Positions 15,441 to 63,916 of a stretch of 64,000 nt of DNA are shown piece by piece; within the stretch, counting starts at the first letter, position 1, and every line of letters begins with the position of its first letter. Both the position numbers and the translations under genes were made by a program. The notes under the pieces were generated by a model. It ran no database searches, had not been told where the DNA came from, and saw nothing but the letters and a program-made list of their open reading frames with translations. Origin of the DNA: an uncultured Methanosarcinaceae archaeon (GTDB lineage: Archaea > Halobacteriota > Methanosarcinia > Methanosarcinales > Methanosarcinaceae); NCBI GenBank assembly GCA_963727895.1, contig CAVSHT010000005.1, forward strand, positions 96,001 to 160,000. Direction: 5' to 3'.

Positions 15441-17429
15441 GTGACCCAATTAAGTTTGTCATCTGAAGAGAAACTCCTTTTATACTGTTCAAGATTAAGC
15501 ATAAGTGAGGACATTAAATGCAAAATAGAAGAAATTTTGGCTTTGATACTTAAACATAGTTATATACTATTAGAAAGTATATTTCTTCATGAACTGCCCC
15601 AGATGCAATAGTTCCAGTCACAAAAAGAACGGTATAGTTGGCGGGCGTCAACGGTACAAATGCTCTGATTGTGGCTATAACTATACAGTAGAGATAAAAT
15701 CAACTGCTTTTTCCGCTTTTGTAAAAAGACAGGCTTTACAACTCTATCTTGAAGGATTGGGCTTTCGTTCAATAGGACGATTTTTAGGGGTGAGTCATGT
15801 TTCTGTCCAAAGATGGATAAAGAAATTTGGTCAGGAGTTAGAGAACCTAAAAAGTGAAAATGAGATATCTATTGTTGAAATGGATGAAATGCACACTTAC
15901 ATCGGTAACAAAAAAAATATTGCTGGATCTGGATTGCTGTTGATAGAGTTGGGAAAAAGTTCATCAACTGCTCTTTTGGTAGCAGAGGAACAGAAACTGG
16001 AAAACTACTCTGGGAAAAAGTGAAGAAAAAAGAGATTGGAGAAGTAATGACAGATCACTGGAGAGCATATGCAGAGGTTCTTCCAGAAAAGAGTCATACT
16101 CAATCAAAAGCAGAAACATTTACAGTTGAGGGATATAACAGCATATTGAGGCATTTTCTAGCAAGATTGAGAAGAAAGACAAAGTGTTATACAAAAAGTC
16201 TTGAAATGCTAAAGTACTCGGTTATTCTATTGATGAAATACAGAAATAAAGAGTTAACTATGTTTAATTAACAATGCCGAAATTTTGAGTAATGACTTGG
16301 ATTGGAAATATACTTTAGAATGTTCTATAAAACAGGGAATTTCTCCACTCTTTTATTGGAATTTGAAGAAAATTAACTATGACAAATATGTACCTTCTGA
16401 AATTATAAAGAATCTGGAAAAAATTTATTACAGTAATCTTGCTCGGAACATGCTCCTTTATGACGAATTAAGTAAAATTCTTACGGCTTTTAAGAAAGCA
16501 GATATTGATACTATAGTCCTGATAGGAGCTTTCCTGACAGAGGAAGTTTATAAAAATATTGGTTTACGGCCAATGAGTGATATAGATCTGCTCGTTAAAG
16601 AAGAAGATATTCAAAAGGCTAAAAAAGAATTAATAAAGTTAAAGTACTCTGCTTATGTATATCCAACGAAAACACATGAGAAATTTCAAACTGTATGTAG
16701 CGAAGAACTACCATTCACACATCAAAATAAAAACAGTTATGTTGAAATCCATTGGGATATTCAGCCACGTAATACTCCTTATATGATTGATATTAATAAA
16801 TTCTGGAGTAATAAAAAACAGTTAAGATAGCTGGCATTGAGACACTGACATTTGCTCCCGAAAATCTATTGCAGCATCTTTGTTTCCATGTAGATAAGCA
16901 TGTTAACCTAAATAGTGCACCTCCAGCTAAGCCTTTAAGAGATTATTGTGATATTGCTGAAGTTATAAATTATTACAAGGATATAATTAATTGGAATTAT
17001 CTTCTACAAAGCTCAAAAAATTATGGGATAGAAGAGCCAATTTTTCAAGGTCTGTTTATTGCAAAAAAGTACTTTGGAGCTCCTATTCCAGAAAATATTC
17101 TCAGTGAACTTGAACCTGTTAAATCCGGTATTTCTTTTGAGGAAATATTTAAAGGATTAACAAAGAACAGTTCAAACAAAAAATATCAATGCCTTGAAAT
17201 GAGTTATCTTACGAATTAAAAAATAATAGATGGGTCTTGGAATAAAGCACGTATCATATTAGGGGATGTTTTTCCATCTAAAGAGTACATGATGTATCGT
17301 TATTCCATTAAAAACGAAAATCAAGTCTACCGATATTACTTCGTTCGTTCAGGCACAGCTCTCCAGTGGGGACTGAACATTTTAAAACAATTGCCGGGTT
17401 ATATTTATAGGTCTACATCTGGGAAGTAA
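15441..17429 (+). pseudogene. Nucleotidyltransferase family protein (NTP_transf_5-like), IS1-interrupted
   Basis: GTG 15441 MTQLSLSSEEKLLLYCSR...IEEIL continues after the IS as SNDLDW...GLRPMSDIDLLV...VEIHW. Frameshift at ~16820 and in-frame TAA at 17217. Confidence 0.85.
15539..16278 (+). mobile_element. IS1-family element copy 4 (740 bp), apparently intact
   Basis: Perfect 8-bp DR GAAATTTT. insA spans 15589-16023. insB is reachable by a -1 frameshift at the A8 run near 15910. Confidence 0.96.
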
Positions 17430-58297: not shown

Positions 58298-58859
58298 GGC
58301 ATTGTTACTTAAATATATCTAGTTCTTTATTTCATCAATATAATAACCGAGTACTTTAGCATTTCAAGACTCTTCGTATAACACTTTGTCTTTCTTCTCA
58401 ACCTTGCCAAAAAGTGCCTCAATATGCTGTTATATCCTTCAACAGTATACGTCTCTGCTTTTGATTGAGTATGGATCTTTTCTGGACGAAACTCTGCATA
58501 TGCTCTCCAGTGATCTGTCATCACTTCTCCAATCTCTTTTTTCTTCACTTTTTCCCAGAGCAGTTTTCCAGTTTCCGTTCCTCTGCTGCCAAAAGAGCAG
58601 TTGATGAACTTTTTCCCAACTCTATCAACAGCAATCTAGATCCAGCAATATTTTTTTTGTTACCGATGTAAGTGTGCATTTCATCCATTTCAACAATAGA
58701 TATCTCACTTTCACTTTTTAGGTTCTCTAACTCCTGACCAAATTTCTTTATCCATTTTTGGACAGAAACATGACTTACCCCTAAAACGCACATGCTTTTC
58801 TTCGAATAACAAGCACAACTAATGAAAGTACTCTCCGTTCTTTTTTTTGACTATTAAGC

Positions 58860-59005
58860 CCTCATTACCTTGGGCAGTAAGGTTGTCTTGATTTTGGTTA
58901 TTCAAAACCGTTCTAAAACTAATCAGTGAATTGCCATCGAAGGCTCAAGTGTGACTTTGATCACGGATGCTAAATTGGCCTTTTAGGCAATTCCACTGCC
59001 CAAAT
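58860..59005 (+). ncRNA. Putative bridge RNA of the IS110 element
   Basis: Closing stem TTGGGCAGT/ACTGCCCAA with two arms. The arms' internal loops carry CTAAAA (target-like) and ATGCTAAA (donor-junction match). Confidence 0.6.
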
Positions 59006-59022
59006 AAATTTGGCGATCTAAT

Positions 59023-60287
59023 TTGATTTAAGTCATAAACAAAGCTTGTGGTTTAGACATTCACAAACTCTTTTTCATTGCTACAATTTTCAGCAGATCT
59101 GGTGAAAAACAACAGCAACGTTTCAACAGAGATGATGAAGGAATTTTAGCCCTTAAAAATTGGGTAATATCAGAAAAATGTGATGTTGTTGCATGTGAAT
59201 CAACCAGCGACTTTTGGGTTCCGATTCATGATTCATTGATAAAGCATCTAACTGTGATAGTTGGAAATGCGCGAGATATGAAGGTATTTACCCATACAAA
59301 AACAGATAAGATTGACTCAGAAGTCATTGCACAACTTGCACTTAATAATATGATTCAGCCATCAAGAGTTTTTCCAAAGGATCATATAGATTTTAGATCA
59401 TATGTTCGACTTCGGTTAACACTTGTACAAAAAAGAACAGATTTAAAAAATAAAGCTCACTCAATTCTTGCATCTGAAATTCAATTCTTGCATCTGAAAT
59501 GCTACACCTGAATAATGTGCTGACAGACGTTTTTGGCAAGAATGGCAGAATGATCTTATTAGGAATCTCTTCAGGTAAGAGTGTTGATCAGATTATTGCA
59601 AGCCTCTCTCCAAATGTTCGGAAAAAAGCTGCTCAGATAAGAGAAATTCTTGATCGAGAAATTTCTCAAAGTGCTGCATTCAGACTTCAGATCTGTCTGA
59701 AACTCATAAAAAGTCTTGATGATGAACTCGAAGCTTTAGAAACAGAAATTTTCAATTATGCTTCTCGAAATCATAAGCGAGAAATGGAGATTTTAATGTC
59801 AGTTCCAGGTATAGGGGAACTTGGTGCGGCAATTTTACTTGCTGAAATAGGCAACTTTAAGGATTTTTCTTCTGGAAATAAGCTTGCTTCTTGGCTTGGT
59901 CTAGTTCCTAATGTGTATCAATCTGCAGATAAATACTATAACGGCAGAATCACAAAGAGGGGATCAAAAGTAGCAAAGTGGATTCTGACACAGATTGCTC
60001 AAGCAGCAGCAAGAAAGAAGAATAGCAGGTTAAAAGAGTTTTTTAACAGAAAAAAGAAGTCGATTGGACATGCAAAAGCAATTATTGCCTTAGCAAGGAA
60101 AATTGCAACGATACTATGGCATCTTATTACAAACGATGAGATGGACGAAGATGAAACCGGATATCAAAAGGGAGAAATCCAAAAGAGAAAGATTATTGAA
60201 ACTGAGATTTTTTCGGTTGATGAACGGATTAAAATAATTAGTGAAATATTTGCGATTATGGGGAAAAAGGATCAGGAGAGCACGTGA
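59023..60287 (+). pseudogene. IS110 DEDD recombinase, inactivated
   Basis: TTG 59023 with TAA at codon 3. GLDIHK, ACESTS, KTDKIDS, SVPGIG and QSAD motifs. A 20-bp tandem duplication (59461-59500) causes a frameshift. Confidence 0.92.
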
Positions 60288-61003
60288 GGATAATCTCCTC
60301 ATGTACTTTCATGCTAAAATCGTCCTATTGAGCGAAAGCCCAATCCTTCAAGATAGTTGTAAAGCCTGTTTTTTGACAGAGGCGGAAAAAGCAGTTGATT
60401 TTAGCTCTACTGTATAGTTATATCCACAATCAGAGCATTTGTACCGTTGACGCCAGCCAACTATACCATTCTTTTTGTGACTGGAACTATTACATTTTGG
60501 GCAGTTCATGAAGAAATATAGGTTCTCATAATAACTAACTATAGTTAATTATCAAAGCCAAATATAATTTACACATCCAAGGATATTAGTTGCCTAGTCT
60601 AAGTCTTATTGCAAAAGTGATCCCAAAAGATTAACGAAGGTATATTAAAATATCCATGTTAAGATGTGAAATATAGAGACTATCCAAAAGTGGACCCCTT
60701 AAGATTTATGAAATATATTATGGCAAAAAAGAAATTGTACATGGATAAGTGCTCTTTGACAACCTTTAGATGAAAATAGAACCAATTAAATCACTACAAA
60801 AAAACCAAAAAGAAGCCCTTAATACCTTAGAAAGATAATTAAAAAATACTTAATTCTGTATGAAGTAGCAAATAGCAATATAGGCACAAATATTTGATGT
60901 TTTAGATCTATTATTTTACAACTTACAGTTATTTTACAACTTACAGTTATTGATTTTTGTTAATTTAAGTCCTACAATAATACAATAATCTGGAAGATAA
61001 AAT

Positions 61004-63177: not shown

Positions 63178-63916
63178 GGCATTGTTAATTAAACATAGTT
63201 AACTCTTTATTTCTGTATTTCATCAATAGAATAACCGAGTACTTTAGCATTTCAAGACTTTTTGTATAACACTTTGTCTTTCTTCTCAATCTTGCTAGAA
63301 AATGCCTCAATATGCTGTTATATCCCTCAACTGTAAATGTTTCTGCTTTTGATTGAGTATGACTCTTTTCTGGAAGAAACTCTGCATATGCTCTCCAGTG
63401 ATCTGTCATTACTTCTCCAATCTCTTTTTTCTTCACTTTTTCCCAGAGTAGTTTTCCAGTTTCTGTTTCTCTGCTACCAAAAGAGCAGTTGATGAACTTT
63501 TTCCCAACTCTATCAACAGCAATCCAGATCCAGCAATATTTTTTTTGTTACCGATGTAAGTGTGCATTTCATCCATTTCAACAATAGATATCTCATTTTC
63601 ACTTTTTAGGTCCTCTAACTCCTGACCAAATTTCTTTATCCATCTTTGGACAGAAACATGACTCACCCCTAAAAATCGTCCTATTGAACGAAAGCCCAAT
63701 CCTTCAAGATAGAGTTGTAAAGCCTGTCTTTTTACAAAAGCGGAAAAAGCAGTTGATTTTAGCTCTACTGTATAGTTATAGCCACAATCAGAGCATTTGT
63801 ACCGTTGACGCCCGCCAACTATACCGTTTTTTTGTGACTGGAACTATTGCATCTGGGGCAGTTCATGAAGAAATATACTTTCTAATAGTATATAACTATG
63901 TTTAAGTATCAAAGCC
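63178..63916 (-). mobile_element. IS1-family element copy 7 (739 bp, 1-bp deletion in insA)
   Basis: Perfect 8-bp DR GCCATTTT. Near-identical to copy 4. Confidence 0.96.

Follow-up and report, generated by a model that had tools for sequence, protein, structure and literature searches.

Introduction

RNA-guided recombination by insertion sequences (IS) of the IS110 family is established (PMC11208160). In IS621 and the IS110 group, a recombinase with DEDD and Tnp domains is encoded downstream of a long left end that specifies the RNA, a target loop precedes a donor loop, the target guides include the core shared by target and donor, and the target is not duplicated upon insertion (PMC11208160, PMC11208158). 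In the seekRNAs of the IS1111 group, the complement of the top strand comes first, an order that is reversed in the IS110-type ISEc21, and the RNA lies downstream of the gene, with rare relatives such as ISMtsp17 that have an upstream noncoding region; the repeats span 11–13 bp, with terminal extensions of 7 (left) and 3 (right) bp, and the protein has ~340 amino acids (PMC11187229). Here and below, published systems are described as in excerpts of the cited sources. We compare with both groups an IS110-family element at positions 58787–60318 of a 64,000-nucleotide stretch of DNA (the window) from an uncultured Methanosarcinaceae archaeon (GenBank assembly GCA_963727895.1, contig CAVSHT010000005.1, positions 96,001–160,000 of the forward strand), and conclude that it is very probably a decayed member of a methanogen-archaeal IS110 lineage that moves by RNA-guided site-specific recombination.

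The element shares host genus and protein family with ISMac14, ISMba7, ISMba20, and ISMma5, ISfinder Methanosarcina IS110 entries that form one archaeal cluster at 30% identity (PMC11208160 supplement), and the N-terminus of the cluster's representative is similar, as judged by eye only. One survey counts 662 archaeal IS110 recombinases, the RNAs of which are not treated in the excerpted text (10.1101/2024.06.21.599552), and 86 bridge-RNA models, many of them unlike IS621, have been presented (10.64898/2026.10.21.760802). A search of the literature on bridge RNA and seekRNA in IS110, IS1111, archaea, and Methanosarcina returned no paper on methanogen bridge RNAs. From the comparisons described below, we read the RNA as probably representing a real bridge/seek-type guide RNA family of methanogens, the mechanism of which is known and the layout of which, set against those of IS621 and the IS1111 seekRNAs, appears to be new.

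Results and Discussion

A Conserved Structured RNA in the Left End of the Element

The noncoding left end of the element (58787–59022) comprises 236 nt, in agreement with the ~240 nt given in an initial annotation of this DNA, and ~31 nt (not under 30, as that annotation had it) follow the stop codon. Encoded here is an RNA of ~135 nt in which a single closing stem holds two arms, the target arm preceding the donor arm as the initial annotation had proposed; its parts are as follows:

58870–59003, + strand: putative bridge-type guide RNA core, with closing stem P1, target arm (58881–58924), and donor arm (58928–58993)
58870–58878 with 58995–59003: helix P1
58881–58885 with 58920–58924: helix P2
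58896–58899 with 58906–58909: helix P3
58928–58935 with 58986–58993: helix P4
58939–58944 with 58978–58983: helix P5
58950–58954 with 58961–58965: helix P6

Homologues were gathered by protein (54 loci) and 21 left ends were aligned, after which a structure drawn by hand from fold and alignment was converted to a covariance model (R1) and used for realignment; RNAalifold, run on the raw MAFFT alignment with its one-column misalignments, returned only a partial structure. R1 matches upstream of the gene, and on the gene's strand, in 52 loci, and is found in 27 of the 151 genomes sampled from the order and in 11 of the 151 sampled from the phylum, the window's genome included. Genome G140 has 18 matches. 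Across 49 distinct sequences, 89.2% of cells are paired, compared to 77.0 ± 0.5% after shuffling (0/500 shuffles as high), and sliding the partner by 1–3 columns lowers pairing to 32–52% of cells. Compensatory changes on both sides occur at 29 of the 37 base pairs, with the caveat that all of these pair counts lean toward the drawn structure, since the alignment was fitted to R1.

Folding of the 151-nt core (58860–59010) gives z = -2.96, with one of 200 shuffles equally good, and recovers the 9-bp closing stem P1 that had been drawn by eye, in which eight of the nine pairs co-vary among homologues. Arm 2 and both apical hairpins likewise stand as originally drawn. The base of arm 1 has to be redrawn, in that the proposed TGATT/AATCA stem, complementary in this copy and specific to its subfamily, pairs in 55% of cells among homologues and in full for just 1 of their 29 distinct combinations; the conserved helix is instead GGTTG (58881–58885)/TAATC (58920–58924), paired in 95.9% of cells, with CG-for-UA swaps. 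What the long noncoding end holds across these homologues is a conserved structured RNA with internal loops.

Frequent G-U pairs (44/49 sequences at one P2 pair, 41/49 at one apical pair) fit an RNA that is read from the gene's strand, and they bear on a reading in which the left end folds as single-stranded DNA, in the manner of the subterminal hairpins of IS200/IS605, and is recognized at the DNA level with no RNA. Single-stranded DNA would have the same complementarities, and a subterminal inverted repeat is present in the element (see below). However, the many retained pairs of this kind, which would be G-T in DNA, are tolerated in RNA helices, and the protein is a DEDD/Tnp recombinase of a family that uses RNA (PMC11208160, PMC11187229), not an HUH enzyme; we therefore consider recognition of folded DNA to be highly improbable.

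We also note the limits of R1 and of the available RNA data. R1 found no match at two bacterial plasmid relatives (33% and 29% protein identity), which are two loci and do not stand for bacteria in general. Among 24 listed RNA runs, all holding less than one tenth of the sampled words, none contains the element itself. Contigs of relatives (85–99% alike, lacking the 20-bp duplication described below) that cover the whole element, the RNA region and the gene included, occur in four RNA libraries, which come from four studies, and in one run (X5) a 143-nt contig spans 58877–59017 at a word depth above that of the neighboring contig, where the contig ends are not RNA ends. Separately, two loci (L096 in genome G138 and L098 in genome G134) have RNA matches of 243–245 nt in place of the usual ~153, with ~90 nt inserted in apical arm 1.

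Element Boundaries and the Shared Core

The element and its surroundings are laid out as follows (a caret marks a junction here and below):

58787–60318, + strand: IS110-family element, 1532 bp, decayed copy, starting with CGCACATG and finishing with CATGCTAAA
58781–58786, + strand: target-derived CTAAAA (left target and shared A-run core), part of the host IS1 site and outside the element
60310–60318, + strand: right terminus CATGCTAAA (left donor and core), common to all copies, with flanks diverging beyond it
58327–58786, − strand: host IS1-like element, distal half, with a DDE_Tnp_IS1 match (38.5 bits, cutoff 24.1, 1.8e-9)
60319–60509, − strand: host IS1-like element, proximal half, with a zinc-ribbon InsA-like open reading frame (ORF) from the ORF list, continuing the sequence of the empty copy

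The initial annotation had placed the element inside an IS1 copy, and we find it inserted in an IS1-like element of the opposite strand, identified by the match to its transposase domain; the zinc-ribbon matches of the InsA-like ORF are weak and lie under the Pfam cutoffs. Boundaries were set by flank divergence and by the numbers of A's at the junctions compared to empty sites. The extent first given, 58781–60319, shrinks by this measure to an element proper of 58787–60318, with the individual features lying at or near the positions assigned to them. The genome holds 31 matches to the element, 21 of which cover at least 97% of it at 93–100% identity.

The empty target can indeed be read from sibling copies of the host, as had been claimed, in that the empty site CCCCTAAAAATCGTCC occurs two further times in the window compared to 0 in 100 shuffles. 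The genome as a whole has 223 empty IS1 sites, of which 46 have ...CCCCTAAAAATCGT; the 223 sites read ACCCCTAAAA followed by CT (144), AT (60), AC (9), or T (8), with CTGAAA replacing CTAAAA in two of the 223. In every copy, the left junction is ...CTAAAA^CGCACATG (CTAAAA^CGCAC), and the right junction is ...CATGCTAAA followed by the bases after the fourth A of the site. The A counts balance only with a donor junction CATGCTAAA^CGCAC and an exchange inside a shared AA(A), which makes the core an A-run, in contrast to the CT of IS621, and corrects the initial designation of CTAAAA as the core. The circle junction predicted at that stage, CATGCTAAACGC, agrees with this bookkeeping. Comparing the A counts of empty sites with those of junctions, insertion is conservative, without target duplication, and the core is shared by target and donor.

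The host IS1-like element deserves separate comment. The genome, at 3.67 Mb, carries at least 223 empty and 16 occupied copies of this one element, which for an archaeon amounts to a very large expansion of an IS, and the copies differ at the IS110 target site in several variants (examples in the window lie at 15775–15790 and 63666–63681). At seven loci (L005, L010, L013, L014, L015, L018, and L020), an IS1 half is present on one side of the IS110 element and unrelated DNA on the other, which suggests rearrangement by recombination between copies.

Two Predicted Target Guides in Arm 1

Both strands of the arm 1 internal loop correspond to the target:

58910–58919, + strand: arm 1 3′ strand GTTCTAAAAC, left-target guide, of the same sense as the top-strand left flank plus the AAA core
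58886–58895, + strand: arm 1 5′ strand TCTTGATTTT, right-target guide, complement of the top-strand AAAATC (core plus right flank)

The 3′ strand is unpaired and contains CTAAAA, as the initial annotation had it, and the last C of GTTCTAAAAC equals the first base of the element's left end. In order to compare guides with flanks, elements were registered on the conserved left-end motif, giving 43 distinct guide-flank pairs once truncated guides (two), exact duplicates (two), and loci lacking a left-end anchor (four) had been removed (the register of locus L108 was set by hand). The left-target guides match their own flanks at 280 of 344 positions, compared to 192.1 ± 6.4 when guides are shuffled among elements, and none of 20,000 shuffles is as high. 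Using one element per distinct guide (32 elements), the matching fractions at positions -4 to -7 are 0.84, 0.88, 0.91, and 0.62 for cognate pairs, and 0.39, 0.25, 0.28, and 0.24 for noncognate pairs. The registered comparison took the place of a free search of upstream windows for the left guide, the results of which were noisy (cognate mean 7.3, noncognate mean 6.5).

In 23 elements, the right junction agrees with the reverse-complemented 5′ strand at 149 of 207 positions, compared to 123.7 ± 3.9 for shuffled guides (0/20,000 shuffles as high), and this strand is a predicted second target guide that was overlooked in the initial annotation. The loop strands are, taken together, complementary to both strands of the target and co-vary with it. 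The IS1 sites offer a further comparison within one genome: sites reading AAAA^T or AAAA^AT, which fit the right-target guide GAUUUU, comprise 13 occupied and 68 empty copies, and sites reading AAAA^C comprise 3 occupied and 144 empty copies (odds ratio 9.2, Fisher p = 1.4e-4), a test that overstates the independence of the sites insofar as IS1::IS110 composites were perhaps copied as wholes.

A Predicted Donor Guide in Arm 2 and the Subterminal Inverted Repeat

On the donor side, the relevant features are the two strands of the arm 2 internal loop and an inverted repeat near the ends of the element:

58966–58977, + strand: arm 2 3′ strand GATGCTAAATTG, left-donor guide, within which ATGCTAAA (58967–58974) equals the right end at 60311–60318
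58945–58949, + strand: arm 2 5′ strand TCAAG, 5 nt, conserved, guide function not detected
58822–58831, + strand: subterminal inverted repeat, left arm ATGAAAGTAC, at a distance of 35 nt from the left end, reverse complement of 60303–60312
60303–60312, + strand: subterminal inverted repeat, right arm GTACTTTCAT, at a distance of 6 nt from the right terminus

The unpaired state of GATGCTAAATTG and the presence of ATGCTAAA within it had both been described correctly. Right ends were called solely from their inverted-repeat match to the left end, with a minimum of 9 of 11 positions, and 25 elements resulted, in which 9–11 of the 11 positions match. In these, left-donor guide and right end agree at 131 of 150 positions, compared to 93.3 ± 5.2 for shuffled guides (0/20,000 as high), and a search made without calling right ends gives 288 matches compared to 261.8 ± 3.9 (0/5,000). 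Furthermore, among eight loci from the phylum search that are absent from the model, the donor guide matches 6–10 nt in all seven that have a right end, as judged by eye. Ten variants of the right end match the guide of their own element (GCTAAA, GTCAAA, GTTAAA, GCCAAA, GGAAAA, AGAAAA, AGGAAA, AGGAAG, GGGAAA, and ACCAG). Within the window's own genome, the diverged subfamily of loci L020 and L024 carries ATGTCAAA as its guide, and L027 and L028, which are fragments of diverged right ends, terminate in CATGTCAAA. Locus L108 scores 2/6 under the repeat rule, which chose the wrong site; the site TTTTCATACCAG fits its guide over 7 nt. The initial annotation had proposed testing whether the arm 1 loop co-varies with insertion sites and the arm 2 loop with circle junctions, which is borne out for the former and for the right-end side of the latter.

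These correspondences also speak to the possibility that the left-end structure is a mere mRNA leader or regulatory element, and that its likeness to flank and right end arose by chance. The whole 245-nt left end folds no better than its shuffles (z = -1.42), the matches within a single copy are 6–8 nt long and A/T-rich, and no separate transcript is demonstrated in the RNA-library contigs. The initial annotation had itself raised the concern of chance matches, which is justified for this copy on its own, as its matches are not above chance, and not for the comparison of homologues, which is above chance. Against such a leader, the guide strands change along with flanks and right ends over dozens of elements, with no shuffle as high, loci outside the model follow the guide rule, and an mRNA leader has no reason to track DNA beyond the element. 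We consequently give a leader with chance likeness the least credence of the alternatives weighed here, and regard it as barely credible.

No segment of the RNA was found to co-vary with the left-end half of the donor. Mutual information between RNA columns and left-end positions separated clades only; left-end positions 2–4 vary among close relatives (CGCA, CGTA, CGGA, CGAA, and CACA) with the RNA unchanged, position 3 varies among C, T, G, and A within a group without a change in the RNA, and short complementarities such as AUGUG:CACAT show no compensation. As no left-end guide is detectable, we infer that this half of the donor may be read by protein or repeat.

Three further observations concern the element ends. 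In the predicted circle, the junction is flanked by the repeat arms at distances of 6 nt on one side and 35 nt on the other. Three mini-elements of ~85 bp, in which the left end through the repeat is fused to the right end without RNA or recombinase gene, occur in the window's genome (G000; contig C4 near 415158–415223, locus L028; C7 near 77978; and C16 near 3625), two of them ending in CATGTCAAA; they look like derivatives of the MITE type, and they fit an arrangement in which the retained parts would be cis-acting and the RNA would act in trans. Finally, upstream of the RNA match at locus L106 (genome G120), a right end (…ACTTTCATGCTAAA) abuts the left end (CGGACACG…) of another copy, a head-to-tail junction of the same form as the predicted circle junction, and the target guide of the abutting copy (CGCUAAAC) nearly equals a right end.

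Proposed Mechanism and Points That Weigh Against It

Taken together, covariation establishes the RNA structure at the level of sequence comparison, as do the registered comparisons for the three guide-DNA correspondences. By analogy with IS621 and the IS1111 seekRNAs, the RNA is likely to be made, bound by the recombinase, and required. In the mechanism that we propose, arm 1 would read the target, its 3′ strand recognizing the left flank and core and its 5′ strand the core and right flank, and the 3′ strand of arm 2 would read the right end of the element. The left-end half of the donor would be read by the recombinase through the conserved C-N3-CATG terminus and the 10-bp inverted repeat. 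Targets such as CCTAAAA^T would then recombine, without duplication, with the circle junction CATGCTAAA^CGCAC (three A's; ...TACTTTCATGCTAAA^CGCACATG...).

A number of observations weigh against this mechanism, beyond the overstated independence of the occupancy comparison. The shuffle tests, too, overstate independence, since the elements are related; positions -1 to -3 of the target are always A and carry no information, and the guides are short and A/T-rich. The match between left guide and flank is weak at loci L076, L101, and L104. The donor guides of L041 and L020 score 4/6, with two mismatches to the right end, and those of L102 and L105 score 2/6 because the guide carries two extra U's. 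In the case of L020, the left end and guides are those of the L024 subfamily (78% identity), and the body and right end are those of the main family, such that the donor guide of this chimera no longer fits its own right end. The guide that was not found for the left-end donor half corresponds to one of the four guide segments of IS621. A search of Rfam with 58300–60600, at E up to 10, returned no matching family and four matches at chance level. No promoter was identified, and the TATA-like TATTAA at 58852–58857 is, in our reading, too near the closing stem for a standard archaeal start; the RNA-library contigs of relatives, from which neither ends nor strand nor level can be read and which may derive from DNA, do not constitute evidence of a small RNA. 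Taking these points into account, we nevertheless consider RNA-guided movement of this lineage to be very probable.

The Recombinase Gene and the Decay of Copies

The gene downstream of the RNA is a pseudogene in the window copy:

59023–60287, + strand: recombinase pseudogene with DEDD_Tnp_IS110 and Transposase_20 domains, TTG start, TAA at codon 3, and a frameshift

Codon 3 (59029–59031) reads TAA instead of GAA, a change present in 6 of 20 motif-bearing copies, and a 20-bp unit is doubled at 59461–59500, which shifts the reading frame. With these two lesions, the window copy cannot make the recombinase, and its description as dead in the initial annotation was accurate. The sister copy L018, the sole copy with a single long frame, has 390 residues and matches both Pfam families (PF01548, 63.5 bits; PF02371, 91.8 bits), the latter of which is also matched by the C-terminal ORF in the window. 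The protein accordingly comprises an N-terminal RuvC-like DEDD domain and a C-terminal Tnp domain, as expected from its earlier assignment to the IS110 family. Its C-terminal 140 residues alone resemble, weakly, the recombinases of IS621 (E = 3.7e-9) and ISCro4 (6.7e-8).

Among the relatives, 21 of the 52 loci retain an open frame of at least 399 codons; judging from these sequences, the family is probably still active and the window element is a dead copy of a live family. At three loci (L004, L006, and L011), copies with the doubled unit have both flanks unrelated to IS1. The presence of doubled-unit copies at unrelated sites implies that defective copies kept moving, most likely mobilized in trans by recombinase from elsewhere.

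The 20-bp unit itself (compared across loci L001–L021) behaves like an unstable tandem repeat, in that 21 near-full copies have two units (16 copies), one (4 copies), or four (L013), the frameshifted two-unit form being the commonest. A 9-bp inverted repeat, ACGTGAGGA…TCCTCATGT at 60277–60309, spans the recombinase stop and adjoins the right repeat arm; it is kept in the Methanosarcina group, and its RAGATH-31 match is at chance level. Two loci (L058 and L059) place an element of the archaeal type on contigs of 1.6–2.2 kb filed under bacterial metagenome-assembled genome names (Deltaproteobacteria and Cloacimonadota), for which mis-binning is as likely as transfer.

Relation to the IS110 and IS1111 Groups

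The features listed in the Introduction for IS621 and the IS110 group (domain composition, RNA upstream of the gene, target loop before donor loop, core within the target guides, and no target duplication) all recur here, and the differences lie elsewhere. Compared to IS621 (PMC11208160), the order of the guide strands is reversed, in that arm 1 pairs to the right-hand top strand through its 5′ side and to the left-hand bottom strand through its 3′ side, and the left-donor guide occupies the 3′ side of arm 2. The core consists of AA(A) where IS621 has CT, no right-donor guide was detected, the hosts are archaeal, and the subterminal repeat spans 10–11 bp in contrast to 2–3 bp in the IS110 group, with which the left-end position of the RNA agrees. 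The protein is also distant from that of IS621, the similarity being confined to the C-terminal stretch described above.

The likeness to the IS1111 group (ISEc11, ISKpn4, ISPa11, and ISPst6; PMC11187229) consists of a near-perfect or perfect repeat of ~10–13 bp by the circle junction, targets within repeated sequences (here another IS), and the order of the strands, in that the arm 1 5′ strand complements the top strand and the 3′ strand matches it. The initial annotation had pointed to top-strand-sense guides on the 3′ side as the opposite of IS621, which is correct (PMC11208160); the arrangement is not unusual, as it is printed for IS1111-type seekRNAs (PMC11187229).

It might thus be asked whether the element simply belongs to the IS1111 group, with the site of circle recombination on the other side of the RNA gene and nothing that goes beyond the published class. 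The strand order equals that of the IS1111 seekRNAs, the 10–11 bp repeat brackets the junction, and the rare IS1111 relatives typified by ISMtsp17 also have an upstream noncoding region (PMC11187229). However, the RNA lies upstream of the gene in all 52 loci, the distances of the repeat arms from the ends are 35 and 6 nt as opposed to 7 and 3 in IS1111, and the open frames have 414–422 codons (a protein of ~415 residues) as opposed to ~340 amino acids. In addition, a tblastn search of plasmids aligned IS4321-type genes only over the conserved C-terminal motif (residues 251–320, E ~9e-5), with the full-length matches being generic IS110-family genes; it is by these features that the clade is set apart. 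Simple membership of the IS1111 group therefore strikes us as unlikely. In the circle, the difference from IS1111 would be that the RNA gene lies between the left repeat and the recombinase gene and not after that gene.

We tentatively raise, as a possibility that we regard as rather doubtful, that the methanogen clade forms a third, hitherto undescribed architectural class between the IS110 and IS1111 groups. Such a class would combine an upstream RNA (IS110-like) with an IS1111-like guide order and junction-bracketing repeat, an RNA that reads one donor half, and a core within an A-run.

Conclusions

The comparisons presented here describe an archaeal lineage in which three guide-DNA correspondences can be read directly from natural insertions. 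The lineage mixes the RNA position, strand order, and repeats that have been used to separate IS110 from IS1111, and it bears on the relation between these two groups; if the clade is indeed a class of its own, it may represent, or descend from, a state in which the RNA gene switched sides of the recombinase gene. The apparent absence of a guide for one donor half suggests that recognition by protein or repeat can replace a guide segment. In a single genome, 16 occupied and 223 empty IS1 sites that differ slightly in sequence amount to an experiment on specificity performed by nature. A separate class of this kind would also offer a native programmable recombinase for Methanosarcina genetics, and the long-frame orthologues in cultured methanogens are candidates for trial as programmable tools in archaea.

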